The position numbers and the translations under genes were made by a program. From Patescibacteria group bacterium (GTDB lineage Bacteria; Patescibacteriota; Patescibacteriia; UBA10025; JAHIVO01), in contig JBAZWB010000001.1 of NCBI GenBank assembly GCA_041660605.1, positions 9,295 to 73,294 on the forward strand: 64,000 bases of DNA, in the 5' to 3' direction. This document shows positions 1,894 to 63,028 of the stretch, in pieces. The notes beneath the pieces were generated by a model, which was not told the DNA's origin, did not search any database, and was given only the letters and a program-made list of their open reading frames with translations. Numbering within the stretch: the first letter of the stretch is position 1; each line of letters starts with the position of its first letter.

Positions 1894-3303
1894 ATGGCAT
1901 TAAAAAAAATTTACGGCCTGAAAAAAATTGGCAATAAAGAAAAGAAAAAGATTTTAGATATTGCCAAAGGTTCAGCGGCGCTAAATGGGGCCGGTGAGAT
2001 TTCTGTTGTGGAGAATCCTAATTATATTTATCCCCGCTACAGCTTTTATCCTTTGGCCGATAAAATTCAGCAACCACTTGCCCAGTTAAAAGGGGTAGTC
2101 ACTGATATGGACGGGACTACCACTACCACGGAAGTTCTCTGTATCAATTCTTTGGAATATATGGTCAGGGTAATGACCGGCCGCGAAGAGGCGATAAAGT
2201 GGACTGGGCTTGATCATCTGAAAGATTATCCTCATATTATAGGCAACAGTACGACCAAGCATGTGGAATATCTGCTGAAAGCGTACGGGAAGTTTATCCG
2301 GCCTTTATTTGTTAAACGGTCTTTTATTAATGCCGGCGTTTGGACATTAGTTGCCGGCCAGGACGAAAACCGGCGCAGGGAAGTGAGTAATAATATTCAG
2401 GTGTTTGGCGCCGCTGGGTTATTAAAAGAGCCATTGGTTTTAGCTCTGCAAAAACACCGTCAGGTTACAGCAGAGGCGGCAAGAAGAGTAGCAAAAAAAT
2501 TGGAGAAGAGATACCTCCTCAAACTGAAAATAACCACCCAGAATGATTTAGTCAGGGCGGGCGTGGATATTTATTATCAGCGCTATCATTATATATTGGG
2601 AAAAATTGATCAGGGAAAAGGCAAAACGATTCGGAAATCATTGGGCCTCACCCGCCATTTAATTGAGCCGATGCCGGGTATTGGGATTTATTTATCTTTA
2701 TTAAGGGGGTGGCTAGGGAAAGATTTGGTTAAGTTTTATCCATATTTAGAGGCGCATCTATTAAGTAACCGCTATTTGCGATATTCAAAAAAATATTTAA
2801 GCACCTGTAAAAAAAATCTTGGGCAGATCGGCGCTTATTATGCAAAAAATCCCGTGCCTATCGCTATTGTTACTTCTTCCATCGAGTATGAAGCCAGAAT
2901 TGTATTAAATGAAGTGTTTAAAGAAATCAGGCGGCAAATAGCTGAATGGCCGTTATCGGCAGGCAAAAAAGAGAAGTTAAAAAAATATTTTTCTGATTAT
3001 AAAAATATTTACAATGGTTTTATTACTGCCTCTGATTCCAGCGAAATAAGGTTAAAGCCGCACCGGGACCTTTTTTCGTTAGCCTTGCACCAGTTAGGGA
3101 TAGGGCCACGGGACTTTAAATATGTTATCGGTTTTGAGGACAGTGAATCCGGCCTATTAGCTATCCGGGCGGCAGGCATCGGCAAAAGCATCGCCGTACC
3201 GTTCACAGATACCCTGGGTCATGATTTGAGTTCGGCCAATATCATCCTTTATGGTGGAATACCAGAAGCCATTTTGATACACCGGACATTTGTGAAAATA
3301 TAA
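1894..3303 (+). CDS. HAD-superfamily hydrolase-like protein
   Basis: DxDGT motif (VVTDMDGTTTT) and a C-terminal GFEDSESG motif; very low GC (about 33%). Confidence 0.55.
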   Translation: MALKKIYGLKKIGNKEKKKILDIAKGSAALNGAGEISVVENPNYIYPRYSFYPLADKIQQPLAQLKGVVTDMDGTTTTTEVLCINSLEYMVRVMTGREEAIKWTGLDHLKDYPHIIGNSTTKHVEYLLKAYGKFIRPLFVKRSFINAGVWTLVAGQDENRRREVSNNIQVFGAAGLLKEPLVLALQKHRQVTAEAARRVAKKLEKRYLLKLKITTQNDLVRAGVDIYYQRYHYILGKIDQGKGKTIRKSLGLTRHLIEPMPGIGIYLSLLRGWLGKDLVKFYPYLEAHLLSNRYLRYSKKYLSTCKKNLGQIGAYYAKNPVPIAIVTSSIEYEARIVLNEVFKEIRRQIAEWPLSAGKKEKLKKYFSDYKNIYNGFITASDSSEIRLKPHRDLFSLALHQLGIGPRDFKYVIGFEDSESGLLAIRAAGIGKSIAVPFTDTLGHDLSSANIILYGGIPEAILIHRTFVKI

Positions 3304-4395: not shown

Positions 4396-4482
4396 AGTTC
4401 GAATATGAGTTTGAAGCGTTTGCAGTTTTAGGCAATATACCGTTTATTTTTTAACCGTATACTCCTTAAAACATCAAACAAT

Positions 4483-5319
4483 TTATTTTTTCCAATCTTT
4501 CAGCACTTCCTCGTATATTTCCGGAGTGCCGACGTCGTACCATTGGCCTTCGAACAGGTAGCCATAGAGCAGGCCTTCGTCTGCCAGCTGGGGGAAGACG
4601 TCTTTTTCCAGCATGGAGTAGCCTTTTTTAATGATGTATTTGAGGATGTCGGGGTTAAAAACAAAAAGTCCAGCATTAATCAGATGCGAGGTGATGTTTT
4701 TGTTTTCCGGTTTTTCATTGAATGAAACAATTTTGTTTCCGCGCAATTTGACCACGCCGAAATCAAAAGGCTTGTTGCTGGAGGAGATCGCCAGGGTAGC
4801 CACACCGCCGTGCGACTGATGATATTTGACTACGTCCTTAATATTGATATCAATCAGTACATCGCCGTACATCATGACAAATGGCGCCCGTTCAAAATAT
4901 TTTCTGGCTAAGCGCAGGGGAGTGGCCGTGCCTTGCTCCTGTTTTTCTTTTATATAAGTGATCTTAACGCCAAACCGGGAGCCGTCTCCGAAATGCGCGA
5001 CGATTTTTTCGCCAAGATGTCCGATAAGAATATAAATGTCTTTGAAGCCGCTTTCCCTAAGCGTTTCAATTGAGTACTCGAGTATCGGCTTGCCATGGAC
5101 GGGGATTAAAGTCTTCGGAATTTCGTAAGTGAACGGCCTCATATTTATTCCCCGGCCGGCTGCCAAAATAAAAGCGCGGTTAATTTTTGGTTCCAGTGAT
5201 TGACTTAGTAAGTATTCAATGGCGTGAGAACGGTTCCTGATGCGCGCACCGTCAATCACCCCATCTATCAGGGGGAGTAGGTCTTTTTTTAGGGTTATCG
5301 TCAGTCTTTTCCTGTCCAT
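4483..5319 (-). CDS. Sugar-phosphate nucleotidyltransferase with an N-terminal ribbon-helix-helix-like domain
   Basis: ILAAGRGINMRP...KTLIPV NTP-transferase signature, preceded by about 45 aa that look RHH/CopG-like (RLTITLKKDLLPLIDGV...RNRSHAIEYLL). Confidence 0.6.
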   Translation of the reverse strand: MDRKRLTITLKKDLLPLIDGVIDGARIRNRSHAIEYLLSQSLEPKINRAFILAAGRGINMRPFTYEIPKTLIPVHGKPILEYSIETLRESGFKDIYILIGHLGEKIVAHFGDGSRFGVKITYIKEKQEQGTATPLRLARKYFERAPFVMMYGDVLIDINIKDVVKYHQSHGGVATLAISSSNKPFDFGVVKLRGNKIVSFNEKPENKNITSHLINAGLFVFNPDILKYIIKKGYSMLEKDVFPQLADEGLLYGYLFEGQWYDVGTPEIYEEVLKDWKK

Positions 5320-5473
5320 AATTTTATTTGATCAATATTCATCATACATCATCATACGTTATATGCAATATAGTTATCCACATATCATAGCATATTAGGC
5401 TAAAATTAGCTTAAATAACAATAAAAACACCATACTCTTTACCTGGTGGTACGTGTTATTAATCTATAGATTG

Positions 5474-6145
5474 TCAGTCTTCTATATTACTATTCTCTGG
5501 GCTAGCTTGTTGTATTGCGCTAATTTTTTGGGGATAAATTATATTATTGAATAATACCCCCTCAATTTTATACTCGATTTCTGGATTTGTAGATTTTATT
5601 GCAGAGCCAAAAAGATTGATTTTATTAATTTCACCTGTTGGCTGCGAATCATTGGGATAAAAATAGTATCCGGAGTAAGAATCATTTACCTCAGCACCAG
5701 CCGACGTCTCTGATTTTATATGTCCCTGCGACTGAATATGCTTTTCCAGATACATTTTGACGGCTTCGGGGAACTGCAAATACTGCTCCTGCGTCAGCAG
5801 ATATTCAAAGAAGACGGGATCATCATTATTTATATAATCTTCAAGCCATTGGTTCCTTTCTACGGCCGTATCAACCATATTATTCTTGATGTTTTTTTTC
5901 TGCCAGCTGGCGCCATATCGGTACTGGCGGTTATAGTTCAATAGTTTTTCTGTAAGCGTTTGATTTTTTACCGACTCGGAGGCCTTATTCACATGCATGA
6001 CCAGGTTAATCAAAATTAAAGTGGCACCGACAAATAATGCCAATAATAATAAAAAAATAATCAGGAGTTTATGGATTTTTTTACCTTTTTTAATAGTAGG
6101 ATCAATAGGTCCTGGGGTAATTTTCTTTTTACTTTTAGCCGCCAT
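5474..6145 (-). CDS. Membrane-anchored hypothetical protein
   Basis: N-terminal Lys-rich segment followed by one TM helix (LLIIFLLLLALFVGATLILINLV); no recognised domain. Confidence 0.4.
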   Translation of the reverse strand: MAAKSKKKITPGPIDPTIKKGKKIHKLLIIFLLLLALFVGATLILINLVMHVNKASESVKNQTLTEKLLNYNRQYRYGASWQKKNIKNNMVDTAVERNQWLEDYINNDDPVFFEYLLTQEQYLQFPEAVKMYLEKHIQSQGHIKSETSAGAEVNDSYSGYYFYPNDSQPTGEINKINLFGSAIKSTNPEIEYKIEGVLFNNIIYPQKISAIQQASPENSNIED

Positions 6146-7861: not shown

Positions 7862-7978
7862 ACTCCAGCAGATGAACATTGCGTTCACTACTGGAGTTTT
7901 TTATTTTGCAATAGTTGCAATTATTATAAATCAAAAAACGCCTCTACATAGTAGAAACGTCTTTTGTTAATTCCGGCA

Positions 7979-8093
7979 ATTGCCTACTTTCCCCACGGAT
8001 TGCCCCGTAGTATCATCGGCGTAACCAGGCTTAACTTCTGAGTTCGGGATGGGATCAGGTGTGACCCTGGCACTTAAATCACCAGAGGCCAGG
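7979..8093 (-). rRNA. rrf: 5S rRNA
   Basis: Reverse complement reads ...CACACCTGATCCCATCCCGAACTCAGAAGTTAAGCC...GCCGATGATACTACGGGG...TGGGGAAAGTAGGCAA, which matches 5S consensus blocks. Confidence 0.85.
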
Positions 8094-8261
8094 AAATAAA
8101 ATGTTTTATTTCCTACGCCTCTTCAGTTTTGGCGATTTACGGTTTTAATGGCGTCAGATAGAATACGGCGCCAAAAAATAAGATAACTAGAATGAATATG
8201 AACACTAACTGACCATTTTTTACGTTATGCATTTTTGATTTTGCTATAAAAATTCAGTCTG

Positions 8262-11412
<3,151 letters not shown>

Positions 11413-11796
11413 AACACTGAACTTTTCGTTTAGTTATTTTAGTTCGAAAGATGCTTACGTTACCTTATATTACTACTAAATTGTTAAGGTTCCTTGCCAA
11501 CAACTGAGATTCCGACCAGCTATACATTATATATAGCGTTCCGATATTTCAGTTTTGGCAAATTAAGTACTGGTGACCCCGCTACTCCACTTCACTGCGT
11601 TCAGTCTCAGACCCTTCGATTCGCCTACGGCTCACTCAGGGTTGTTACCCTCGCTACGCTCGGGTAACAAAAATCCCGCGGGTGCGGGATAAAATCGGCA
11701 CTAAGATAAATTACGATTTTACCCGCTTTTTGTAGTTAATATTAAGTTTATTTGCATATATATTTGCTTGTGGATTAACTGTTAATTTCAGTGTAG

Positions 11797-11832
11797 TTCA
11801 GTATAACCTTATTGCCGGCGGGTGTCAAGTTA
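11797..11832 (-). promoter_or_regulatory. sigma70-like promoter for the 23S-5S operon (TTGACA-N17-TATACT on the minus strand)
   Basis: Minus strand reads GGTAACTTGACACCCGCCGGCAATAAGGTTATACTGAACT about 390 nt upstream of the mature 23S 5' end. Confidence 0.45.
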
Positions 11833-12308
11833 CCATTTTATAGGCATTTTTACGTAATTTTCATTAAATTTATTAACACATATAGAATTACTAATTATTA
11901 TATGAACAAATTGACAAATTATTTTATCGGCGTTACTTTTTAATCAGATTGTAGGCGTTACATATTGTGATGTTCATTTCAGGAGGTATTTATGCCATTG
12001 AATACGCACTTAGGCCAAAGCACAAATGAATTGGTTATTATCGGAGCGCTGATGTGCCATGGAGATCCCCGCGTGGCTATACACGTTTTAGCTGTGACTG
12101 GAGATCCGGAGTTAGCAGTAAATACTGCCATAGACGCTAATCTCGTCTTTGATTCAATGTCCGACATAGCAGGCGATGACGATTGCGACTGAAGGTTCAC
12201 GAAGATTTTTTTGGCAAAATCAAACCTGGCGATTTAATTTGTCAGGTTTTTTATTAAATTAAATAATAAAACACCCCCGACCGGAATCCGGTCAGGGGCA
12301 TAGTTGAA

Positions 12309-47966: not shown

Positions 47967-48102
47967 CCCCGTTAGAAAATTAGCCAATGGCCGTTTGATA
48001 ATAAACAATAATTTTATTTGAACCTTCTTTAATAACCAAAAAGATGTTTTATAATTTTCTAACGGGGTTGACAAAAAGAGGAAACCGTAGTAGGTTGTAG
48101 TG
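47967..48102 (+). repeat. Palindromic element copy 4 (terminal repeats CCCCGTTAGAAAATT / AATTTTCTAACGGGG, about 107 nt) with outward TTGACA-N17-TAGGTT
   Basis: Terminal repeats at 47967-47981 and 48053-48067; TTGACA 48068-48073; interior is the reverse complement of the copy-3 interior (for example ...CCTTCTTTAATAACCAAA.AGATGTTTTATAATT). Confidence 0.55.
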
Positions 48103-48129
48103 TTTAAAAGTGGTAAAATATATTTAACT

Positions 48130-51024
48130 ATGTCAAGGGAAACTTTTCATCCTAATTATGCCGATGCAGTTAAAGATGAATCAAATGATTCTAATTCTTT
48201 TGATAAAAAAAAGAATGTACATGGCAGTAAGTTGCAGGAAATTTTAAAATATTTTGACAGAACATTGGTACCGGGTCTGGATTTGAACGCAGTGTATCCA
48301 GAGTACGTAGGAAAAGAAGCTGATGTACAGGGTATAGATCAAGAGAAAGAGAAGGCGCTACTGGATCATTTAAATACTCAATATAAAGCCCTGACGGGGG
48401 GTCATGAAGTCCTCACAGAGATGAGCGAAGTTGAGCAACAGAAAGTTGGAGGATTAATAGAGGAGGTTGTTGAACAATATTGGAAGCCCACCATATCAAT
48501 GCACACGAAAGAGGCATTAGCAGATTTTATAGATAATCTCATTGTTCAACTCAATCAGGAAGGGGTTGAGCAGGTTTTGGAAAAAAGCTTAGATTTAAAC
48601 GAGAAAGGGAATATTAATAAAGTGGGTCATTGGATTAAACTTTTAGAAGAGCTTTATTGGCGTTCTGAGCGAATTGATCCGGAATCGAGAGAAGAGTACT
48701 TTCGGGATTTTGAATCTGAAGATGCCGTCGTGAAAAAGATAGTTGGAGAATTGATGGAAAAAATTAAGAACGAATCCGAGGGAAACTATTTTTTGAATGA
48801 ACGCATTAAATATCTCGTCGAGTGTATTAAAAAGGGAGAAGTCCCTGAAGTCGACACCTTACCGTTTGATTTTGATTTTGGGCACTATGCTAAATGGCAA
48901 GAAAATGGGAGACTCGCGGTGACACCAATGGGTGACGATGGTGATATTGAGGATGATATTGAAATGTATACAAAACTTGAGAATACTTTTTTAGAGGAAA
49001 TGGGTGCAACTCACAGCGATAAAGAAAAGAGCGCACTTCAAAAAGAAATGCAGGAAACACTCAGTGCGGTTGCCAATAAAATCCGTACTTCATATTACTT
49101 TGAGGAGTTGAAGCCATATCAACTCCGTTCTTTTACTGATCAGGTTGGGGACGATAAAGATAAATCATCTGATCAATCGCTATATGATTTTGAATACCTG
49201 CATTCACGTCAGATGAGGAAACAAATTGAAAAAGATTTTGGGATAGTGGTTGAGTATATTAATTTGCCAGTCCGGAATAAATTTTTTCAATTTATTAAAG
49301 AGAAAAATATTAAAGATATCGAACCAGCAAAGAATTTTTCCAAAAAATATGGGGAAGCAGGGCTGGTAACATTTTTATCTTTGGCACAGGATCCGACAAT
49401 AGGCAACAAACTGGTAGAACTTGGTAATCGCCTGCCTGAAGATGATGCTTATCGATTATTTGATCAGTATCATAGACTCATCACAAGCGCTAGCAGCAAA
49501 GCAGAAAAAATCCAAACGCTTCTTGCGCAGCAATACCCAGAAATAAATTTATCCAGGGAAGAACTTTCTGATTGTTTCATGGTACGCGCAAAGGATTTAT
49601 TAAATGAAAGCTTCAATAAAATGGAGGATGGAAAGCTAGATATTGATCAGGTTCTTGCAGAACTTAATCAGGAAACGGCAATACAAGAAGTTTTACGTGT
49701 TCAGTTCATGAAGATTGCCGAGCTTCTATCGAAAGATGATGTTGACTTGGAGACATATAACCATACGCAAGAAATGGTTATAAAAAGTATCGGAGAGTCA
49801 GGTCTAGTGAGCGAGGCGGCATATTTGCGTGCTTTAAACGCCATGGGCAAACTAAAACCCATGCCGGAATTATACTGGAAAGTTGACCGGGAGCCGGAAG
49901 AGTACAATAAACGTTTGGGTGTTAATGTACCGGAGGTACTGAAAAGAGTAGGCCAAGGTGGCAACGAAAAGACCTTATTGGAATTCGGTCCGGGTAGCGG
50001 TCTGGCCAAGCACAAACTGCGGTTATCCGGTGCGGCTGATAATTTTACGGAATTTGCCATGAGCGACGCGCTTTATTACGATTTAGCTGAACCAATAAAA
50101 CATTTAATTGATTTTGATAAAATCCAGGCCAAACTGGGCAAAGAATTAAATGCACAGGACAAGCAATCATTAATTGAGTATATAAAACGGACTATCGTCA
50201 TAAAAGTCGGCCAGACAGCTGTTGATAAGATTGAGTATGATCAGGAGTTTCAAAGTGATATTGCTCATAGTCCCAATGCCCTGAAAGAGTATATAAAAAA
50301 ATCCGGACATAAAGTTTCTCTTGCCGACACGGTGCCGACTGATCAAGCCGTAGAAACTCCGGATGGCCCAATATATGCTGAAAAATTTGAAGTAGCAAAA
50401 CAATCTCCAGCTTGGCAGGAAGCACGACGGCTTTTCATGGGTGAAGTGGAAAAATATTTGCGGGACGATTTTGATGAGCAGGATGTTTATGAAATATTGA
50501 ATGCCCATCCAGCCGGAATCATGATCGGGGACTTTAATGACGTTACAAAACTGAAAAATGACCAATTGGATTTTGCCCTGGGCGTCAGGTCGACGGTCTA
50601 TGTGGAGCGCGAGCAATATCCTGAATTTATTAAAAACGTGATAGCAAAATTAAAAGATGGAGGAATCTACATTGACGATAATGTGAGGGAAAATTTCGGC
50701 CGGTACTATCGCTTAGCAGAACTGAAGCAGGTGCAGGAGGACTTAGTTGAGCTGAAACGAAAAGGTGGGATAGATTTTGATGTCACTATTTCTCTGGTTA
50801 TCGGGCGTGGCGTGGCAGAAGAAGATTATAAAAAGGACGATGCGCCTATCGCCGTCGTTATTGCTAAGGGTAAAGCTGATCTATCAGTCGTTTCTGAAAA
50901 TTTATTGAAGTCCAGCAAGTTAGTCGGTTTGGACGAAGTGGTTGCTAATGGCGATTATCTGAAAAGCCTGGATCAGTCTGGTCGGGTTAAAAAATCAATT
51001 AATACATTACCACGAGCCGCTTAG
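48130..51024 (+). CDS. Large hypothetical protein (964-974 aa; track start is the GTG at 48100)
   Basis: Long low-GC ORF; possible SAM-binding motif I-like stretch KTLLEFGPGSGLAKHKL; otherwise no motif recognised. Confidence 0.55.
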   Translation: MSRETFHPNYADAVKDESNDSNSFDKKKNVHGSKLQEILKYFDRTLVPGLDLNAVYPEYVGKEADVQGIDQEKEKALLDHLNTQYKALTGGHEVLTEMSEVEQQKVGGLIEEVVEQYWKPTISMHTKEALADFIDNLIVQLNQEGVEQVLEKSLDLNEKGNINKVGHWIKLLEELYWRSERIDPESREEYFRDFESEDAVVKKIVGELMEKIKNESEGNYFLNERIKYLVECIKKGEVPEVDTLPFDFDFGHYAKWQENGRLAVTPMGDDGDIEDDIEMYTKLENTFLEEMGATHSDKEKSALQKEMQETLSAVANKIRTSYYFEELKPYQLRSFTDQVGDDKDKSSDQSLYDFEYLHSRQMRKQIEKDFGIVVEYINLPVRNKFFQFIKEKNIKDIEPAKNFSKKYGEAGLVTFLSLAQDPTIGNKLVELGNRLPEDDAYRLFDQYHRLITSASSKAEKIQTLLAQQYPEINLSREELSDCFMVRAKDLLNESFNKMEDGKLDIDQVLAELNQETAIQEVLRVQFMKIAELLSKDDVDLETYNHTQEMVIKSIGESGLVSEAAYLRALNAMGKLKPMPELYWKVDREPEEYNKRLGVNVPEVLKRVGQGGNEKTLLEFGPGSGLAKHKLRLSGAADNFTEFAMSDALYYDLAEPIKHLIDFDKIQAKLGKELNAQDKQSLIEYIKRTIVIKVGQTAVDKIEYDQEFQSDIAHSPNALKEYIKKSGHKVSLADTVPTDQAVETPDGPIYAEKFEVAKQSPAWQEARRLFMGEVEKYLRDDFDEQDVYEILNAHPAGIMIGDFNDVTKLKNDQLDFALGVRSTVYVEREQYPEFIKNVIAKLKDGGIYIDDNVRENFGRYYRLAELKQVQEDLVELKRKGGIDFDVTISLVIGRGVAEEDYKKDDAPIAVVIAKGKADLSVVSENLLKSSKLVGLDEVVANGDYLKSLDQSGRVKKSINTLPRAA

Positions 51025-51788
51025 GAGCCAGATGGTAAGGTTGACCAGAGGAAGTTAAATAGAATTTTAAAGTTGTTGGCAATCTCTTCATTGTCGATCA
51101 GTACGCCAACGGCGTTTTTCTTTTGGAAAGTTATCAGTGAAATTTTGTGCCCGCTGATTTTAATATCCATCCGGAAAGGGAACTTATTGACGGGGATTAA
51201 TCTTGCCTCAATAAATTTATCAGAGTTAGTTTTATTTAATGCATTGGTATCCGGCGAGATAACACGATTGAACAATTTTTTTTGCACGCGAGTTTTTATG
51301 TATATTGGCGCGTAATCTGGAATATATTCTAGAAGGTCGCCCTTTTCCTCTATGCTGTCAATTGGTTGGTTATTTGACAGAAGTTCCTCGTAGATTTTTA
51401 TTATACCCTCTTGGCCCTCGAAGAAACGAACTCCGGGCTTGTTCATCGTTAATCGGTAGGTTGAGGCAAGTTGCTCAAAATTACTTTGCAGCACTTTTTT
51501 TTGCTGGTTAAGTTGGTGCTCATTTTTTTCTACTAAAGCTTTCAGCTGTTCCGGCGGCTCTACGGTAAATACTTTCTTCCCACGCTCTTCAGTTTCCAAA
51601 ACTAGGCCTTTCTTAATGAGGTCGCCAAGGATGTCGTAGGTATTGCCCCGTTTATAGGGGACTTTGGGCAGGAGCTTGCCCATATTAGCTTTGCCCAATA
51701 ACAATAAGGCCTCATAAACGGTGGCCTCTTTTTCTGAAAGGCCAATTTGGTTGAGAGTTTTAGCAATGGGGGAGGTAGGAGGGGGCAT
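51021..51788 (-). CDS. TrmB-family HTH transcriptional regulator (paralogue 1)
   Basis: N-terminus IGLSEKEATVYEALLLLGKANMGKL...GLV winged helix of the TrmB type; its C-terminus resembles that of the 56377-57135 protein. Confidence 0.55.
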   Translation of the reverse strand: MPPPTSPIAKTLNQIGLSEKEATVYEALLLLGKANMGKLLPKVPYKRGNTYDILGDLIKKGLVLETEERGKKVFTVEPPEQLKALVEKNEHQLNQQKKVLQSNFEQLASTYRLTMNKPGVRFFEGQEGIIKIYEELLSNNQPIDSIEEKGDLLEYIPDYAPIYIKTRVQKKLFNRVISPDTNALNKTNSDKFIEARLIPVNKFPFRMDIKISGHKISLITFQKKNAVGVLIDNEEIANNFKILFNFLWSTLPSGS

Positions 51789-51988
51789 ATTATTTGAGGT
51801 TAATCCCTGTGGATAAGTCTGTCCACAAGAGTTTTTTAGTTAACTTAGAAAGTCTGCTTACGGGTTAATTCTAGCAAACTAATTAATTAATGTCAATATT
51901 CAATGACATTTTAGGTTAATAATATTTAATAAATTAATCCCTTTATCACAAGCGAGTATCACTTTTTAAATTCTATTGGCATTTACCG

Positions 51989-52017
51989 TTGACAAAAATA
52001 CTAAGTGGGTATATACT
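51989..52017 (+). promoter_or_regulatory. Near-consensus sigma70 promoter TTGACA-N17-TATACT with no ORF downstream
   Basis: TTGACA 51989-51994, TATACT 52012-52017. Confidence 0.5.
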
Positions 52018-52024
52018 GATTCGT

Positions 52025-52520
52025 TACGCTAAAAATTCGTTCTTTCGGAAGAAGCTCTTTTTCAAAAGCACTGAAGCCAAATGACTATGAAGCGTCATCA
52101 AACATTGGTGGCAATTCAAGCCGGCTTATCAGTCGAAAGTAGATCAGCTGTTTAATCAAGGGTTGATGCAAGTAATAGGAGAGAGACAGCCCTTGGCAAA
52201 GCAACCATTTATTTTCTGGCGATACTCGTCAGTGGCGCTCCCGGCGCTCGCAAACACCGCGAGACCAGGAGAACAGTGTTGAGTATCAAATGAGTGATGA
52301 GGAGGGAACTTTGACAATTGAATAAATGATATGCGCCGCCTTTCATAAGCATCGGGGCGGGCACCGGAGAGAGCACCTTCGCTTCATATTTATATGCGGC
52401 ATGGTGAAAGCGGCAGTGAAAACTGCTGAAGAGCTTAGAAAACTTTTAGAATTCATTAACATGAATATATACCAATAAAAGGGACTCTCTCATTAAATGA
52501 GCATGAGTCCCTTTTAGTTT
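52025..52520 (+). ncRNA. Candidate noncoding RNA of about 490 nt, family unidentified
   Basis: Strong promoter, no ORF above 50 codons, many local hairpins, ends at a bidirectional terminator (GGGACTCTCTCATTAAATGAGCATGAGTCCC then TTTT). Confidence 0.3.
52481..52520. terminator. Bidirectional rho-independent terminator
   Basis: Hairpin flanked by A-run and T-run on both strands. Confidence 0.5.
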
Positions 52521-52893
52521 GGTTTGGGCAAAGAGAGGAGAGAGAAGCAGTGAAGGCCTAATAGCAATATACAATATTCGAGGCCACATATCTGTCTCTT
52601 CTCTTTGCTCTTTTAGAAAGTAATTGTTCTTTTCCTCCTACGCGTAAACGCTATGGAGGACACAGTCAGTGTTTGAAGTTTTCCATTTGGAATTATTGGA
52701 TCGGCATAAACGACTTGCGCTTGTTGCAAGCGTCATGCGGGTCAACGAAGGAGAGAGGATAATGGAAAATTTTTAGCCAGACGGTTAGCCCGTTGTCGGG
52801 AATCCAAGATTTCCGGTTCGCGCAACAAGTTCGCGGATCGGGAGGACGGCAAACGAGACACAGACGCTAGCCCCAAGTGCGCCCCCACACCTT

Positions 52894-53166
52894 TTAGTCT
52901 TCGTGAATTGAGTGTTGGATACGTCGTTTCAATTGGCCCCACGCCTTCGCATGTTTCTTGAGCTGGCGTTCACGTTCGTACGCATCTTTTCTGGAAGCGT
53001 ACGCTTCATAGTAGATAATTTTCCACGGCCGAAACGAACGGGTATAGGTACTTTCGCCATTATTGTGCTGTATTAATCTTTGTTGCGGCTGTTTGGTGAA
53101 GCCAATGTACTTTTTACCCGGATATTTAACACTCTTTAATATGTACATAAAGTAATACATATACAT
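52894..53166 (-). CDS. Small GIY-YIG nuclease-domain protein (UPF0213/COG2827-like); alternative start at 53148
   Basis: YILKSVKYPGKKYIGFTKQPQQRLIQHNNGES...WKIIYYEAY...ERERQLKKH matches the GIY..YIG..R..H.N..E pattern. Confidence 0.7.
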   Translation of the reverse strand: MYMYYFMYILKSVKYPGKKYIGFTKQPQQRLIQHNNGESTYTRSFRPWKIIYYEAYASRKDAYERERQLKKHAKAWGQLKRRIQHSIHED

Positions 53167-53244
53167 ATTATATCATGGTAACTAAAAGGTGTGGGGTGCA
53201 GTTGGGAATAAACTCAACTGAAAAATCAAAAACAAAGTCCCGTC

Positions 53245-54660
53245 GTGGAAACACAGATGGGCGAGGAGAGGAAAATGTTTGTACGAGTTAGAATGTCCAG
53301 CGTCGCAGAGCCAGGAAAGCTCTGGACCGGCGATACGCCAGAGGATGGTGCTGTCGCTGAAGTTGAACTTGTCGAGTTGCACTGCGAATGCGGTGCGTCA
53401 ACCCGAAAGTTCAGAATTTCCAACGAGCTACCCGTGCAGCTTGTTGGCGAGGCAATTGATGTGAGTCAGTTGCCGATTGCCTACATCTCTTGCGGAGGTG
53501 TGGGATCGACCCGTGACTCCGTAGAGGCATTGGAGGCATGGAATTGGTCGGGTCGCGTCGGTGGCTCGGTCATAATTGATCCACTCGTTGTTCTCGAGGG
53601 ATATGTTTCTTGTCCTCCGCCTACGAAGAATGGATTCAAGTGGATATGCTTGTATAGTGGATCCACTTTGAACGGATTCGTCCTTGTCCGTTTGGATAAG
53701 AGTGGAAATCTCCACCCGGATCACTGTCCCCTCGTCCGTACGGTAGATCAGGCACGGGAATGCCCGCCTTGTAGGGAGAAACGCATTTCCGCGGCCTTGA
53801 ATGGTGTCGAGGAGATGTTCATCATTGAAACCGACGTCGAGTATCTTAAGGTCGGCGAAGGTGAAGAGCTCCCTGCTCACGCCGTTCGGGCATGGGCAGC
53901 TGCACCCACGTTGGAGGGGGCAAAGAAGGGAAAGATTTCTTTCCTCTATGAAGGTGGGGCAGGTGGCCGTCGTGGGCCGCAAGCCACCGGTCATCTTCAG
54001 GACTTATGTTGCCTGAGGGTGAAGATCAAAAATGGAAGAGTTTCACATCTTCTCTGGGTTATGAAATCCGGGGAGATGATAGAGGACACTCATTATGAGT
54101 TCATTGGTGAGTGCCAGATCGCTGGTATCAACCTTAAGGTTGGCCAGTGGTTTCCGGACTACCTAATACCAAAGGAGGCCGAAACTCCTTTGGTAGAATC
54201 GGACCCAGTACCCCTTTTCTTAAATGAGGAGCTAATTTCGCTCGCCAATAGAGCGAAAGACGTTTCTGGTGAGAGTGACTACGCTCTTGCTAACTCAATT
54301 TTTGCCTACCTTTTGGAAAAGTTTTTCCAGGAAGGCGAGAATTCAGGTCTCGAATTAGAGCTCGAAACACAGGACCTAGAAGGTCGTGGTCCGAGTGAGG
54401 TCTTCTATGACCTTCTGGTCGCCAGAGCGGGTGAGAGCACGCTCTGTATTCCGGTACCTTTGCTGGAAAGCAAGAGCGCCTTGACTGCAGCAAAAGCTGC
54501 AGCGAAGGTGTTTCGTCGGGAGCACGAGCGTGATTCTAGATCGGATCCGACCGAGATGAAAATTCTCTGGCAGGAAGTACTTGAAAAGGTGGGAAGAGAG
54601 GCTCTTGAGGCTTCCTTCTACCACCTGGTAGATAAGGTAGAAATACCTTTTCTCGAGTAG
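53245..54660 (+). CDS. Hypothetical protein A (471 aa), GC-rich, with Cys clusters (CECG...CPLV...CPPC)
   Basis: Coordinates taken from the track; GTG start; conserved leader AAACAAAGTCCCG.CG...GGGCGAGGAGAG; followed by the hairpin GGAGGTGACGTTTGCACAAACGCCACCTCC. Confidence 0.5.
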   Translation: METQMGEERKMFVRVRMSSVAEPGKLWTGDTPEDGAVAEVELVELHCECGASTRKFRISNELPVQLVGEAIDVSQLPIAYISCGGVGSTRDSVEALEAWNWSGRVGGSVIIDPLVVLEGYVSCPPPTKNGFKWICLYSGSTLNGFVLVRLDKSGNLHPDHCPLVRTVDQARECPPCREKRISAALNGVEEMFIIETDVEYLKVGEGEELPAHAVRAWAAAPTLEGAKKGKISFLYEGGAGGRRGPQATGHLQDLCCLRVKIKNGRVSHLLWVMKSGEMIEDTHYEFIGECQIAGINLKVGQWFPDYLIPKEAETPLVESDPVPLFLNEELISLANRAKDVSGESDYALANSIFAYLLEKFFQEGENSGLELELETQDLEGRGPSEVFYDLLVARAGESTLCIPVPLLESKSALTAAKAAAKVFRREHERDSRSDPTEMKILWQEVLEKVGREALEASFYHLVDKVEIPFLE

Positions 54661-54842
54661 TTCTTTTTGAAATCAACGCATTGCACATGTGCTTGGTTTC
54701 AGCAATCGGAGGTGACGTTTGCACAAACGCCACCTCCCTCTTTTCCAGTTCGTGAGTACACATTCTCGGACTGAAAAAGAAACCAAAACAGAAACAAAAA
54801 ACAAAGTCCCGACGGTTTTCACCGTACGGGCGAGGAGAGAGT

Positions 54843-55829
54843 ATGAGAACGAGTAGTAGAGGAAATGAGTCACAGCTAATCGAGGGCGCGAGAGTCATGG
54901 CGCCCTTTGATGAATCTATCTTCTCAGACATCATTTCAGCCGTTAAGGGTTGCCGGAGCTGGGAGTTACTGGCAACCGAAGGAATGTGGGGACGCAAAGG
55001 GTTTCTAGTCCTCGCCGGGCCTAGCAACGGCGTACAACTGTACGTAGAATGCGATCATATCCGACGGCCTGGGAGAACGACGGAGATGGTGTGGATTTGG
55101 GGTTGGGCACCAAACCCATTTTCACGGTTGGTAATGGTTGAACCCAATTGCCAGTCTGAAGCGGATTTGCTATCCATCCTTCGATGGGTCGCTAACCGTG
55201 CCGGGATCAGCACGGGGAAACTAATTGGAATTCGGGAAATTCCTGGGTTCCAGTCTGAGGAGAGTTTTCCTTTCCCCTGGCCCAGCGTCGGTGAGAAAGT
55301 GAACCACCAAGACGGCTGGTTCACTCGTTCCAAGATTGTATATCGGGTTGAAAAACCCGAATGGTTTGAAGGGGATGCTTTCCGTATCGCGGAAGGTATT
55401 TACATCACCTTCCCAGACGGTTCCTACCGCTTGGTCCAATCGGCTAAGGAGTTTTTCTCCTGGCCGGGGTGGTCGCTTGGTCCATCGATCCCGACGGATA
55501 TACCCGGCGTTATCTCGGGATATGGGGGGCCAACTCACCGGCAGGGCGACCTGATGGTGTGGCCGGCTCCCGGTGATCTAGGTGAGTGGGAAGGAGAATT
55601 GAGTTTCCGGGGCTTAACCCTGGATACTAGTCACTTTCTTTTGGTAGACGAAAGTCTGCCGGAGGGGAAGGGGTCGCTCGACCGTCATACGGTCGAAAGA
55701 AACGATGATGGTTCGGTGGTGATTACTCACCCCGAACACGCTACCGTGGAACTTCCGGCAGGGAAGTATATTATTGGGCTCTTGCCCGGTACTTCCCGGC
55801 CATTTAGCCGAGACAGGGATCTCGACTAA
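54843..55829 (+). CDS. Hypothetical protein B (328 aa), GC-rich, Trp/Gly/Pro-rich
   Basis: Same conserved 5' leader and the same 3' hairpin as gene A. Confidence 0.5.
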   Translation: MRTSSRGNESQLIEGARVMAPFDESIFSDIISAVKGCRSWELLATEGMWGRKGFLVLAGPSNGVQLYVECDHIRRPGRTTEMVWIWGWAPNPFSRLVMVEPNCQSEADLLSILRWVANRAGISTGKLIGIREIPGFQSEESFPFPWPSVGEKVNHQDGWFTRSKIVYRVEKPEWFEGDAFRIAEGIYITFPDGSYRLVQSAKEFFSWPGWSLGPSIPTDIPGVISGYGGPTHRQGDLMVWPAPGDLGEWEGELSFRGLTLDTSHFLLVDESLPEGKGSLDRHTVERNDDGSVVITHPEHATVELPAGKYIIGLLPGTSRPFSRDRDLD

Positions 55830-56167
55830 TATTGCACTAATGGAGGTGACGTTTGCACAAACGCCACCTCCTTCATTTCCAGCCTATCACCCTACGCTAA
55901 AGCTTCGGGTGGTTGTCTGAAAAAGAAATTTTGTCTCCCCGCACCGGATCAGGCGCTGCGTTTGTTCATTACATTACGAATAAGCGCGGCCTCCTCTCTC
56001 CAGCCTGGTCCGATGCGGGGAGGGAATTATTAAATAATAGCGGTTAGATGTCACAAACCGCGCCGTCGGAGATAGATTTTTTCCGCTGGTTTTTTATGTT
56101 ATAATGATTTTAGCGAATCTCTGTCTATGTACGGAGTTTCGTTAATTCATCTTTCATAGGAGGATAT

Positions 56168-56269
56168 ATGGAAGATTTACACGTACGTCCGCACCTTTAC
56201 GTTCGCCCACGTCCGCCATCTGTAGATATGATGAACGGTAATGTGAAGCTGAACGACGACGAGAACTGA
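56168..56269 (+). CDS. 33-aa Pro/Arg-rich peptide MEDLHVRPHLYVRPRPPSVDMMNGNVKLNDDEN (not in track)
   Basis: AGGAGGATAT RBS directly upstream, extended -10 TGTTATAAT at about 56128, own terminator GGAGTGCCAACCGGCACTCCTTTTTT. Confidence 0.4.
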   Translation: MEDLHVRPHLYVRPRPPSVDMMNGNVKLNDDEN

Positions 56270-56295
56270 GAACCACCCTGTTCTAACTTTCTCGT

Positions 56296-56322
56296 CAGAA
56301 TTTCTGGAGTGCCAACCGGCAC
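56296..56322 (+). terminator. Rho-independent terminator of the peptide gene
   Basis: GGAGTGCC-AACC-GGCACTCC followed by TTTTTT. Confidence 0.6.
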
Positions 56323-56376
56323 TCCTTTTTTAATATAAAAACAGCCATTTATTCATTTAATAATGAGTGTGACTTT

Positions 56377-57135
56377 CTATTCTTCAGGCAGGCTATTCCA
56401 AAGCGTCATAAAAATAAAACACAGTATCTGCGCCATTGCGGGATCCTCAATGAGTACTACCTTCAAGCTTTCCCCTTCTATGGACGCGATAGCAATGTTG
56501 TCCCCAAAAAGCTGGATACCCGCTGGAATGTTAATATTTTCTTTAAGGAAACGAAATTTTCGGTAGTTGCCTAATGTTTCGCTAAATCGCTTATGCGCAA
56601 GAATTCTACGATCGGTAATAGCGTACGCTGTTGTTGATTGTTTTATGCGTTTCAAAGTTAAACGGCGGTATACCTCTTCCGCTTTCATAATTGGGAAGAA
56701 TGTATCAAGCGACCCGAACCAGTAATTGTCTTTATTTTCTTTGATTAGCTTATCAATGATTGCACGAGCGCCCGCTTTTCCCTCATAGTACGTAACTTGT
56801 GTAGAGGGGGTTTTGTGCTTGATCGCCTGGGTGAGTGCAGGAATGAGCTTTTCAATTACATTTTTGTCCTGCACAATCTTTTCTTCTTCTTGGTTGAGAA
56901 ATTCTCGGAATGCTTCAGTCGGCGGTGTGGCGGTGATTAACTGTCGTTTACCTTTGATAATACGGGAAATCAATCCTCTTTTTTGCAACTTTTCAAGATA
57001 AAAATAAACCGTACTGCGCCTGATGCCCGTAAGGCGAGCCAAATTCGCCGGATTATTGGGCTCGTGCTGCAAACAGGCGAGGTAAATAGCTATTTCCTTC
57101 TCCTCTAAACCTAGCTTTTTTAGAAGTTTTTCCAT
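56377..57135 (-). CDS. TrmB-family HTH transcriptional regulator (paralogue 2)
   Basis: LGLEEKEIAIYLACLQHEPNNPANLARLTGIRRSTVYFYLEKLQKRGLI; C-terminus ILCFIFMTLWNSLPE parallels ILFNFLWSTLP of paralogue 1. Confidence 0.55.
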   Translation of the reverse strand: MEKLLKKLGLEEKEIAIYLACLQHEPNNPANLARLTGIRRSTVYFYLEKLQKRGLISRIIKGKRQLITATPPTEAFREFLNQEEEKIVQDKNVIEKLIPALTQAIKHKTPSTQVTYYEGKAGARAIIDKLIKENKDNYWFGSLDTFFPIMKAEEVYRRLTLKRIKQSTTAYAITDRRILAHKRFSETLGNYRKFRFLKENINIPAGIQLFGDNIAIASIEGESLKVVLIEDPAMAQILCFIFMTLWNSLPEE

Positions 57136-61755: not shown

Positions 61756-61783
61756 TTGACTATTTATTGTTGACTGCTATAAT
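61756..61783 (+). promoter_or_regulatory. Promoter TTGACT-N16-TATAAT driving the riboswitch-met operon
   Basis: Seen directly. Confidence 0.5.
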
Positions 61784-61804
61784 TATTTACACACTTTAAC
61801 AATC

Positions 61805-62040
61805 AAACCTTATCAAGAGAGAGCTGAGGGTTCTGGCCCAACGACGCTCCGACAACCATCCTACGCTTTTCATTGCATTCAAAGCTTTGGATGGCGTAGC
61901 CCTAGTAATGAGGCTACGCCACGAGTTAATTAAGTGAAAGAGCAGCAGGAACGGTGCCAAGTCCAGCCTAGCCATTTACGGATGGCCGGGATAGATAAGA
62001 GATAAAACAATCTCTTAGATAATAAGAGATTTTTTGTTAC
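61805..62040 (+). ncRNA. SAM-I (S-box) riboswitch with an enlarged P3/P4 region and a terminator expression platform
   Basis: CTTATCAAGAGAGAGCTGAGGGTTCTGGCCCAACGACGCTCCGACAACC matches CUUAUCAAGAG.GG.GGAGGGA.UGGCCC..GAA.CC.GCAACC; GGTGCCAAGTCCAGC matches GGUGCUAAAUCCAGC; P1 3' strand GATAAGAG; terminator ATCTCTTA-GATAA-TAAGAGAT + TTTTTT at 62011-62036. Confidence 0.75.
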
Positions 62041-62065: not shown

Positions 62066-63028
62066 ATGGGCCAATCATTTTCTGAAAAAGTTAAGGATCC
62101 TTCGTATTATCCGGTATTATACGAAATGTTGCCTCCACCGGGAAACGGCAACCATTCGGCCTCGCAGGCTTTTCTGAAAGTCCTGGACAAGATTTTTCAT
62201 AATGTGCGGATTGATGCCATTAATATTCCGGAGATTCATGAGGAAAAAGGCCAGTCTGGCCAAAAAGAAGTTCAGACTTTTGACAAAGCCGTTCCGCGCC
62301 AGTTTGCCCGAGAGATATTAAAACACCGGAAAGATTTTGAAGTCATCATCAACCACGTAGTTGTGCACCAGCCGCCGGAGATATTTCATCAATGGGCAGC
62401 GGAAACATATGATGAATTTGGCCTGAAAAATTTAATTTTGGTAGGCGGCGAATCGCCGAAAATCAAATACCCCGGTCCGACTGTTACTGAGGCTGCAGAA
62501 TATCTGCGCGACAAATACGTTTCCGGGGTGAAAGATAATAAATGCGCGTTGCTTGGCGGCATTACCATCCCGACCAGGCGGCACGCGCAGGTTGAACAGG
62601 ATGAGCCGGCCCGTTTGGTGAAGAAAAGCCAGAGCGGCATAGAATTTTTTACCAGCCAGGTAATCTACGAGGCAGAAACGACGAAAAGCCTCTTGAGCGC
62701 CTATAACACCTATTGCCATAAAGCCGGCGTAAAACCAAAAAGGATTTTTATCAGCTTCGCGCCGGTTTCTACGCCAAAAGACATTAAATTTCTCCGCTGG
62801 CTGGGAGTCAGCATTCCCGAAGAGGTTGAGCAGCATCTGCTGGAAGGCTGGGTCGGCATGGGTTGGCGTTCGGTGGAATTATGCCAGGAAATATTGTCGG
62901 ATATTTTAAATCATATCAGAAAATTCAAGCTGAAAGTGCCGATCGGCATAAATGTCGAGCATATCATGAAGTATAATGTGGAATTGTCCAAGGAGCTGCT
63001 GGTAAATTTATCCGAGACTTTGAAATAA
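62066..63028 (+). CDS. Methylenetetrahydrofolate reductase-like protein (MetF family)
   Basis: Co-linear similarity to MetF (VLYEMLPP, VGGESP, QVIYEAET...FISFAPVSTPKDIKFLRWLGVSIPEEV); downstream of a SAM riboswitch. Confidence 0.6.
   Translation: MGQSFSEKVKDPSYYPVLYEMLPPPGNGNHSASQAFLKVLDKIFHNVRIDAINIPEIHEEKGQSGQKEVQTFDKAVPRQFAREILKHRKDFEVIINHVVVHQPPEIFHQWAAETYDEFGLKNLILVGGESPKIKYPGPTVTEAAEYLRDKYVSGVKDNKCALLGGITIPTRRHAQVEQDEPARLVKKSQSGIEFFTSQVIYEAETTKSLLSAYNTYCHKAGVKPKRIFISFAPVSTPKDIKFLRWLGVSIPEEVEQHLLEGWVGMGWRSVELCQEILSDILNHIRKFKLKVPIGINVEHIMKYNVELSKELLVNLSETLK

Follow-up and report, generated by a model that had tools for sequence, protein, structure and literature searches.

A Very Large, Modular Structured RNA Family of Patescibacteria Preceding a Variable Gene Array

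Introduction

What does a bacterium with a genome of ~0.9 Mb transcribe from a near-consensus promoter that is followed by some 870 nucleotides (nt) without a protein gene? The question is raised by a locus of a Patescibacteria group bacterium (GTDB lineage Bacteria; Patescibacteriota; Patescibacteriia; UBA10025; JAHIVO01). The stretch of DNA that was analyzed, referred to as the window, comprises 64,000 nt of contig JBAZWB010000001.1 (assembly GCA_041660605.1, positions 9,295 to 73,294 of the forward strand), and all positions given below are those of the window unless another locus is named. An initial annotation, made from the sequence alone, had proposed that positions 52025–52893 encode one or two large structured non-coding RNAs. 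The analysis presented here identifies this region as the main body of a new, very large, modular family of structured RNAs of the Patescibacteria, members of the candidate phyla radiation (CPR).

Very large conserved structured RNAs are rare in bacteria (RNase P RNA, tmRNA, OLE, GOLLD, ROOL, and raiA) and each of them opened a line of research. The CPR represents a huge and poorly understood share of bacterial diversity with tiny genomes and, to our knowledge, no such RNA has been described for it; a literature search, with subscription journals outside its coverage, returned nothing on a large CPR RNA. A ~0.9-Mb genome that retains a non-coding stretch of 1 kb makes a notable investment in it.

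Results and Discussion

A Conserved Structured RNA without Coding Capacity

The region is preceded on the plus strand by a sigma-70-type promoter (TTGACA-17-TATACT, 51989–52017) that matches the consensus at 11 of 12 positions. Nine sites with at least 11/12 matches are present on the two strands of the 64-kb window (1.6 ± 1.2 expected from shuffles), so that the promoter is among the best of the window, as the initial annotation had held; its hexamers are identical to those of the site upstream of the 23S rRNA gene. No gene is called between 51789 and 52893, and the gene caller likewise made no call in the region on an identical metagenome contig. The flanking genes, one encoding a TrmB-like protein and the other a GIY-YIG protein (52894–53166), are both located on the minus strand. 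Within 52025–52893, the longest plus-strand open reading frame (ORF) has 50 amino acids (aa; 52326–52478), and ORFs on the minus strand that start with GTG or TTG have 47–66 aa. None of these small ORFs is conserved among the homologues described below, and insertions and deletions between homologues are mostly not multiples of three (78/91, 39/48, and 94/115 in three comparisons, ~83%). The earlier statement that no protein gene follows the promoter therefore holds.

Homologous loci were found by searching genomes for a flanking protein and then contigs that encode homologues of that protein. Nine further loci within the Patescibacteria contain homologues of the transcript, and the family alignment has ten members: the window, L002, L003, L004, L005, L010, L053, L054, L055, and L060. 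Positions 51976–52898 are homologous over their full length in L004 (nhmmer E = 1.6e-73) and L010 (E = 8.7e-61) and over large parts in L002, L003, L005, L053, L054, L055, and L060. A covariance model of the sub-core (R1) recovered all ten members with E values from 4e-19 to 4e-12. Both the TTGACA hexamer and GGTATATACT are conserved in 10 out of 10 members, and the site in L002 matches the consensus at 12 of 12 positions. The DNA of the element is 71–78% identical among the homologues, compared with 45–71% identity of the neighboring protein; for L010 and L005 the identity to the window is 71–76% at the DNA level and merely 45–48% between the TrmB-like proteins.

Both halves of the region fold ~4 standard deviations better than dinucleotide shuffles on either strand. 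Five structural units were defined on the plus strand and each was scored on its own alignment against slid controls and 500 shuffles. In domain A (52023–52300, alignment A4), 89.4% of the predicted pairs are formed (32–43% in slid controls), with compensatory changes in 10/34. Domain B together with an internal hairpin (52301–52522, alignment A2) reaches 91.7% (slid controls 34–47%) with compensatory changes in 22/39 (4–10 in slid controls), domain D (52634–52882, alignment A7) 87.9% (26–64%) with 17/24, and the tail helix (52871–53206, alignment A6, with an insertion excised) 97.8% (37–50%) with 8/20. In each of these four units, 0 out of 500 shuffles attained the covariation score of the alignment. 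In hairpin C (52526–52610), 8 out of 18 pairs show compensatory changes. The strand is indicated by the predicted helices of domain B, which contain 31 G-U and 8 A-C pairs when read on the plus strand and 9 and 20 on the reverse, and by RNAalifold energies that are better on the plus strand in every alignment.

A comparison with homologous loci, which the initial annotation had suggested as a check, thus reveals compensatory changes in every domain, and its proposal of a large structured RNA stands with regard to significant covariation and strand. The proposed extent does not, since 52893 is not the real 3′ end (see below), and its two parts of ~480 and ~370 nt are both structured but belong to a single conserved unit. 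In the window the RNA has a length of ~965 nt, or ~1,250 nt with an inserted gene.

The same data bear on the reading that the region is a decayed pseudogene or a regulatory region acting at the DNA level, with sites for the TrmBL2-like protein encoded next to it. Short repeats and an inverted repeat in the region could be DNA-binding sites, and TrmBL2 is described in the title of its PDB entry as an archaeal chromatin protein with a novel mode of DNA binding. Neither version, however, accounts for compensatory changes with a strand-specific G-U excess in every domain, for motifs that are strand-specific, or for conservation across long evolutionary distances; no reading frame is conserved and the insertions and deletions are out of frame. 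Because of the compensatory changes, the G-U asymmetry, and the out-of-frame indels, both versions are rejected as highly improbable.

No Match to Known RNA Families

A scan with Rfam 15, which includes OLE, GOLLD, ROOL, HEARO, raiA, EAR, T-box, PyrR, and riboswitch families, gave no match at gathering score in the region or in ten related loci, and the mundane family that might have explained the locus was therefore not encountered. The best matches at E ≤ 10 were microRNA and plastid 3′ untranslated region hairpins with 16–22 bits, compared with thresholds of 53–135. The 3′ tail and the full L053 element gave chance hairpin matches only, and ARAGORN found neither tRNA nor tmRNA genes in L001–L011.

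Short strings in the region had been noted to resemble the P4/CR-V strand of RNase P RNA and helix 8 of signal recognition particle (SRP) RNA, which would make the element a highly divergent version of one of these RNAs. The RNase P-like string (AAGCCGGCUUAUCAGUC, 52118–52134) and the SRP-like strings (52044–52055 and 52073–52085) are all located in domain A, an optional domain that is entirely absent in L002, L005, and L060. Among the members that carry domain A, the CR-V-like AAGCCGGCUUAUC is not conserved in L003, L004, L010, L053, L054, or L055 and the SRP-like strings within 52044–52085 are not conserved either. Furthermore, the CR-V-like string lies ~95 nt from the 5′ end of the RNA and not near the 3′ end. 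No RNase P or SRP RNA was found in 51780–53260 at E ≤ 10 with permissive filters; at gathering score, RNase P RNA was not found in the window and neither RNA was found in the ten related loci. As unconserved strings within an optional domain, the resemblances are attributed to chance, and kinship with RNase P or SRP RNA is next to impossible.

Domain Organization

Transcription is predicted to start at ~52023, where a conserved GUUACGC (52023–52029) is located. Domain A contains two helices on alignment A4: one (52157–52165/52187–52196) encloses a loop with the first copy of GGAGAGAG, referred to as the GA motif (52178–52185), and the other is formed by 52221–52234 and 52274–52287. In the three members that lack domain A, the same promoter and the shared initial transcribed sequence, GUUACGCUA, directly abut domain B.

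The core, domain B (52301–52470), was defined from alignment A2, RNAalifold, and pair counts. It starts with the invariant box UUUGACAAUUGAAUA (52310–52324), followed by hairpin H1 (52331–52362), which forms with differing sequences in eight out of ten members and is absent in two. An invariant segment comprising the second GGAGAGAG and CACCUUC (52366–52380) leads into a CACC/GGUG helix around a variable hairpin (52375–52406), and a GAAA-capped hairpin (52411–52428) and an AU-rich linker complete the domain. The box has the form UUUGA(C/A)AAnUnAAUA and is invariant in 10/10 members. Two interpretations of it were rejected: as a boxA element (UUUGACAA), since the critical C4 is missing in half of the members, and as an internal promoter, since no −10 element is correctly spaced from it and the sequence in L002 and L005 is TTTGAAAA. 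The box can also be read as a mini-ORF of 3–4 codons (UUG ACA AUU GAA UAA) behind a purine-rich stretch.

Domain B is followed by a terminator-like hairpin, ACCAA-U-AAAAGGGACUCUCUC...GAGUCCCUUUU-AG-UUUGG (52471–52522, core 52477–52515, helices 4 and 5), with 17 pairs of which 92.9% are formed across the alignment. The stem covaries (GGGAC/GUCCC to CGGGC/GCCCG), and two parts of the hairpin are invariant: CUCUCUC in the 5′ arm (52485–52491) and the U-tract (52512–52515). The UUUU is invariant in 10/10 members even where the opposing A-tract differs (L003 and L055), which is the signature of a real terminator. A conserved GC-rich hairpin directly before a U-tract corresponds to an intrinsic terminator and, with an A-tract upstream and the U-tract downstream, it is bidirectional in form; the strong bidirectional terminator of the initial annotation is thus present, conserved, and covarying. 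A simple terminator scanner omitted the hairpin, presumably because the upper stem and loop lie outside its hairpin criteria.

Domain C is a single long hairpin (52526–52610), the long imperfect hairpin recognized earlier, whose 5′ strand contains the third GGAGAGAG (52537–52544) paired with CUGUCUCUUCUCU. It is present, with varied sequences and insertions, in all nine members that reach that far. In L053, hairpin C (2845–3167 of that locus, minus strand) contains ~200 extra nt that fold into several added hairpins. Large expansions that are specific to one lineage are thus tolerated, or exploited, by the RNA.

Two copies of a G[CU]UCUUU repeat follow hairpin C within 52607–52636 (GCUCUUUUAGA at 52607 and GUUCUUUUCCU at 52626). 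Domain D (52634–52882), resolved on alignment A7, consists of a hairpin (52634–52659) and a long-range helix (52671–52686/52762–52776) that encloses a further hairpin (52712–52734) and the fourth GGAGAGAG (52750–52757), and it ends with GGGAAUCC (52798–52805) and the conserved AAGUGCGC (52875–52882). The four GA motifs (starting at 52178, 52366, 52537, and 52750) are invariant or nearly so; three are located in loops or junctions and one is paired inside hairpin C.

The Tail and the 3′ End of the Element

The RNA continues beyond 52893. In L002, L004, L005, L010, L053, and L060, AAGUGCGC is followed by a covarying hairpin and then by a conserved GUUGCAGUUGG-GAAA-CCAAC. In the window, the corresponding tail helix consists of outer strands CCCCAAGUGCG (52871–52881) and UGCAGUUGGG (53197–53206), aligned in A6, and of inner arms CCCCACACCUUUUAG (52883–52897) and CUAAAAGGUGUGGGG (53182–53196), which form 15 bp with perfect complementarity. 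The loop of this helix has 4–7 nt in the other members and holds a 284-nt cassette (52898–53181) in the window; once the cassette is excised in silico, the window fits the family tail helix. Conserved sequence resumes at 53182 and reaches the ribosome-binding site (RBS) of the gene that starts at 53275. An alternative hairpin, CAGUUG...CAACUG (53199–53220), is GAAA-capped in the relatives. The 3′ end of the element (53197–53274) contains, in addition to this hairpin, an A-rich linker and a hairpin GUCCC...GGGC (53237–53262) that abuts the RBS (GAGGAGAGG, 53263–53271) of the ATG at 53275. The linker and the RBS-abutting hairpin are shared by L005, L010, L053, and L060, and the element is thus conserved up to the RBS in five loci that have five different first genes. 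No terminator is present between the tail and the first gene in the window.

The cassette encodes a GIY-YIG protein on the minus strand (ORF 52894–53166, 90 aa, Pfam E = 6.4e-15). It is a single-copy element with 40% GC and an extended −10 element of its own (TGATATAAT, 53175–53167), and the ORF was left uncalled by the gene caller on the identical contig. No other member carries a GIY-YIG gene at the tail-helix position, and by this comparison the cassette is judged to be specific to the window genome and to lie outside the ancestral RNA. Transcription of the cassette would cross domains D and C in antisense orientation and reach the bidirectional hairpin.

A Sister Group and More Distant Loci

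Across the loci the layout is recurrent: a protein of ~1,000 aa, the TrmB-like gene, and then a gene-free gap of 1–2.8 kb upstream of the TrmB-like gene. Nine loci (L006, L007, L008, L009, L011, L057, L058, L061, and L062) are linked to the ten-member family (group 1) by position and by promoter and hairpin features only, with L006, L007, L057, and L058 linked by mutual BLAST in addition. The elements of L006 (4085–5330), L007 (4334–5235), and L058 (269–1100), all on minus strands, occupy the same genomic position and are 80–90% identical to each other over 700–800 nt. This sister group (group 2) follows the same plan, with the promoter, a GA-rich motif, a CU-bearing terminator hairpin, a long hairpin with a GA strand, and an AAGAGUGCCC-like 3′ part, and is not alignable to the window family by covariance model; L057 bridges both groups through its promoter-proximal and terminator-hairpin segments. 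The promoter and the long gap recur in the more distant loci, whose sequences are not alignable, and R1 gave no convincing match on them. Runs of 7-mer repeats (GTAACTC/GTAATTA) are present in L006 (~5490–5975) and L007 (~4440–4500 and 5390–5460), where they lie on both sides of a conserved 131-aa gene that separates the TrmB-like gene from the leader promoter.

A DNA pattern with two anchors (GGAGAGAGCRCCTTC...AYGGYGA) was used to scan metagenome contigs. Of 40 matches, 39 were chance matches inside high-GC coding genes (e.g., ECF sigma factors) and L025 was the sole real one.

Continuity with a Variable Cargo Operon

The gene at 53275 is the first of a variable cargo operon on the plus strand (53275–56335) that consists of a 461-aa gene (53275–54660) and a 328-aa gene (54843–55829) and is closed by a strong terminator (GGAGTGCCAACCGGCACTCC-TTTTTT, stem 56306–56325). 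Neither cargo protein of the window matches Pfam, NCBIfam, or PADLOC. No plus-strand promoter-like site with at least 9/12 matches is present between 53172 and 57258. In L002, the 12/12 promoter precedes the RNA, no other promoter is present on that strand, and a 17-bp terminator follows cargo gene 4. In every locus examined, the genes 3′ of the RNA have the same orientation as the RNA, whereas the cargo itself differs between loci in a mosaic manner, with the same families at different ranks; recognizable families include a split Csx3-AAA system (PADLOC E = 6e-60 and 1.8e-15), a bpMoxR AAA ATPase, a Prok-E2 protein, and a SAVED protein.

The alignments place the element on the plus strand from the predicted start to the first cargo gene and show it as continuous with what would be the cargo mRNA. 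The order of promoter, RNA, cargo, and terminator without another promoter gives the appearance of one transcription unit. Since the element reaches the start codon at 53275, its behavior would be that of a giant 5′ leader, either in place of or in addition to that of a free-standing RNA gene. The most likely reading, to which we give an even chance, is that the RNA is a cis-acting expression gate that is independent of the cargo and serves as the leader of the variable operon.

The proposed gate would operate in several steps. The TrmBL2-like protein would control initiation at a shared control region (described below). Most transcripts would stop at the intrinsic terminator that ends domain B (52471–52522), as a stable structured RNA of ~500 nt. 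Read-through might occur when the invariant GGAGAGAGCACCUUC pairs with the 5′ arm of the terminator instead of with its own helix, a choice that could be biased by a protein or ligand bound to the core. Polymerases that read through would then proceed through domains C and D and the tail, where the G[CU]UCUUU repeats, if they act as boxA elements, would recruit Nus factors and thereby spare the long untranslated RNA premature termination. Finally, the hairpin next to the RBS may tune the translation of whichever cargo gene follows.

The switching step is suggested by the pairing potential of the terminator. In eight out of ten members, the best upstream partner of its 5′ arm is the invariant GGAGAGAGC(A/G)CCUUC at the second GA motif. 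The predicted duplex has −16 to −20 kcal/mol compared with −18 to −24 for the terminator hairpin. Its energy roughly equals or exceeds the limit of the best 5% of shuffles. The CACC of this segment otherwise forms part of a covarying helix.

Several observations weigh against the gate. Both strands of the putative antiterminator are invariant, and covariation therefore lends the pairing no support; in L003 and L055 the best partner of the terminator arm is located elsewhere, and the ~105 nt between the switching segment and the terminator downstream of it are atypical of riboswitch-like attenuators. The G[CU]UCUUU motif fits just the 5′ two-thirds of the boxA consensus, the sister group (L006, L007, and L058) mostly lacks it, and the exact G[CT]TCTTT does not occur in the organism's own 23S leader (11406–11800, minus strand), which contains the loosely similar AUCUUUCGAAC and CCUUAACAAUUU; the comparison with rRNA leaders covers the 23S leader, the 16S leader being located outside the window. 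In the window the tail is interrupted by the antisense GIY-YIG cassette, the conserved part stops before the RBS in L002 and L004, and in group 2 it ends 100–250 nt before the first gene. The ends of the transcript, the efficiency of the terminator, and read-through are predictions from sequence. Lastly, a 1-kb RNA that is more conserved than its protein neighbors is elaborate well in excess of what any known cis-regulator requires, which argues for an additional or a different function.

This last point keeps the main rival explanation alive, namely a free-standing, trans-acting structured RNA (a scaffold of a ribonucleoprotein (RNP), a protein sponge, or a ribozyme, comparable to OLE, 6S, or CsrB) that happens to be located beside a recombination hotspot, a real possibility although a lesser one. 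The four copies of GGAGAGAG and the G[CU]UCUUU repeats would then act as multi-copy sites that bind a protein or one another, and the cargo genes, which are unrelated between loci, would be passengers. Size, modularity, invariant single-stranded motifs, and three hairpins with GNRA-type caps are typically seen in RNAs that adopt a tertiary structure or have protein partners; the conservation exceeds that of the adjoining proteins, the strong internal terminator would release a defined product of ~500 nt (~230 nt without domain A), and the conserved part stops short of the first gene in L002, L004, and group 2. However, the 3′ end of the conserved region has no terminator, the only terminator precedes domains C and D and the tail, which have no promoter of their own, and the cargo is co-directional everywhere with no own promoter in the two loci scanned for it (the window and L002). 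The same RBS hairpin precedes different genes in five loci, and no candidate partner protein was found, the 974-aa protein encoded nearby having no detectable domains.

The boundary between conserved and variable DNA coincides with the 3′ end of the RNA, the cargo has a foreign composition (51% GC compared with ~40–42% in the flanking genes on the conserved side) and is mosaic, and a GIY-YIG cassette is inserted in a hairpin loop. These features would suit the RNA of a mobile element or island, acting as an integration or recombination anchor in the manner of tRNA and tmRNA genes or as a replication or packaging RNA of an integrated element. Yet neither an integrase or transposase nor direct repeats flank the cargo in any locus, and the upstream synteny (UvrB, the ~1,000-aa protein, and the TrmB-like gene) is chromosomal and conserved. 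BLASTN searches against plasmid and phage collections returned no similar DNA, and the pattern scan of viral contigs gave a single match, a chance one within a coding gene. A mobile-element RNA is accordingly improbable.

In an elaboration of the gate reading, the element would represent a new class of giant, ornate RNA restricted to CPR bacteria: it would form a multi-domain particle that senses an infection or stress signal or a protein, switches the internal terminator, and licenses the expression of foreign defense modules (Csx3-AAA, SAVED, E2, MoxR, and others) that recombination has placed behind it, with the terminated 5′ product perhaps serving a second role in trans. We regard this version as doubtful.

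The Control Region and the TrmBL2-like Protein

The gene divergent from the RNA (51021–51788, minus strand) encodes a 255-aa protein with a TrmB-type winged helix-turn-helix (wHTH) domain (Pfam E = 4.5e-11), and a TrmB-like gene adjoins the leader in all loci. The AlphaFold model of the protein (predicted local distance difference test, pLDDT, 92.6) matches TrmBL2 (5bqt) over its full length in a Foldseek search (E = 1.3e-14), and its C-terminal half matches NucT of the PLD family (E = 7.6e-6). The protein thus has the N-terminal wHTH domain, the coiled coil, and the C-terminal domain of the TrmB family and, as in the TrmBL2 subtype, the C-terminal domain is PLD-like and a sugar-binding domain is absent.

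An inverted repeat, TGTCAA-N7-TGACA (51891–51908), has invariant columns in the 10-member alignment A9 and is a candidate operator. It overlaps the −35 element of the promoter of the TrmB-like gene (51896–51868, minus strand; 11/12 with TG), and additional TATCAC half-sites are present at 51944 and 51957, before the RNA promoter. These sites resemble the half-sites of archaeal TrmB-family proteins and are considered candidate operators. From the arrangement of genes and sites we infer that the TrmBL2-like protein regulates the RNA promoter.

A 974-aa protein (48100–51024) is conserved beside the TrmB-like gene in all loci (709–1,197 aa). It has no sequence match in Pfam, NCBIfam, PADLOC, or the PDB, and its C-terminal part contains LLEFGPGSG, a motif resembling those of S-adenosylmethionine (SAM)-dependent methyltransferases. 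It was considered as a protein partner of the RNA and dropped from consideration because no library gave a domain match. At its far end, the variable cargo island is bounded by a second TrmB-like paralogue (252 aa, 56377–57135, minus strand). Only ~230 nt lie upstream of this gene, and a second copy of the RNA was looked for near it and was not found.

The boxA-like Repeats

In addition to the two copies behind hairpin C, domain A of the window contains GUUCUUU at 52039 and GCUCUUU at 52054. Twelve leaders contain 30 copies of G[CU]UCUUU, compared with 0.9 expected, and the opposite strand contains two. All members that carry domain A have the motif at +17 to +32, and 1–5 copies follow hairpin C in every group-1 member. 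The boxA consensus published as GYTCTTTAANA (PMC5725501) has G[CU]UCUUU as its first seven positions, C4 included, and the match reaches 7–8 positions, with positions 8–11 matched by some copies only (e.g., GTTCTTTAATT, GTTCTTTACAA, and GTTCTTTGAAA). The identity of the repeats as boxA elements is therefore a partly supported lead.

Comparison with Known Systems

The closest functional analogues, together with boxA-dependent antitermination, are the leaders of processive antitermination systems: conAn of Gram-positive conjugative plasmids (PMC8191782), EAR of the Bacillus eps operon, and putL/putR of phage HK022. They share with the window and L002 a strong promoter, a structured RNA, an intrinsic terminator, and a long co-directional array; a promoter-proximal RNA followed by terminators within one co-directional operon is found in both loci, a correspondence of layout only. 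The put RNAs have ~70 nt and EAR ~120 nt. The RNA of the window is several times larger, is located on a CPR chromosome before cargo that is exchanged between genomes, and has no match in sequence or structure to conAn, EAR, or put, those of them that are in Rfam giving no match; antitermination by it is putative.

Nus complexes also assist the folding of RNA. In systems that depend on boxA and Nus factors (rRNA leaders, suhB, and CRISPR arrays), as in the element described here, a G[CU]UCUUU(A) motif is located near the promoter of a long untranslated structured transcript, and Nus complexes prevent Rho termination in such transcripts (PMC5725501). The element differs in that its match to the 3′ half of the consensus is poor and up to five copies are present instead of one, and binding of NusB/NusE is putative.

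OLE, GOLLD, ROOL, and raiA resemble the element in being very large multi-domain RNAs with invariant junction nucleotides, GNRA-capped hairpins, and a narrow phylogenetic range. In contrast to them, it has no Rfam match, contains an internal terminator and an optional 5′ domain, continues into an mRNA, and belongs to another phylum. T-box and PyrR-type attenuators share a conserved multi-helix domain followed by a terminator whose 5′ arm has an alternative conserved partner upstream, one that is putative in the element. They differ, as do riboswitches, in that the downstream genes of the element are variable and form no defined regulon and its switching segment is far from the terminator; ~450 nt of conserved structure lie beyond the terminator and no Rfam riboswitch matches.

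The architecture is unusual: one of its domains is optional, a terminator lies inside it, boxA-like repeats are present, and the RNA is continuous with the mRNA of a shuffled, defense-like array. Should the RNA be a gate for horizontally acquired genes, it would represent a new principle in the regulation of accessory or defense islands and could be used directly as a portable leader for expression. Should it be a free-standing RNP, it would offer a new subject for work on structure and function. The RNA family can also help to recognize these loci when CPR genomes are annotated.

Other RNA Genes in the Window

Two further observations concern known RNAs of the window. The 23S rRNA match (7971–11860) spans 3,141 nt compared with a model of 2,925 nt, which suggests insertions. 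The 23S gene has its own 11/12 promoter (TTGACA-17-TATACT) ~390 nt upstream and, since no 16S gene is located in between, the rRNA genes appear to be unlinked. A SAM riboswitch match (61756–62001) has 195 nt compared with a model of 108 nt, which implies that the aptamer contains a large insertion. An 11/12 promoter lies before the riboswitch at 61756, and a 320-aa ORF comes after it at 62066.

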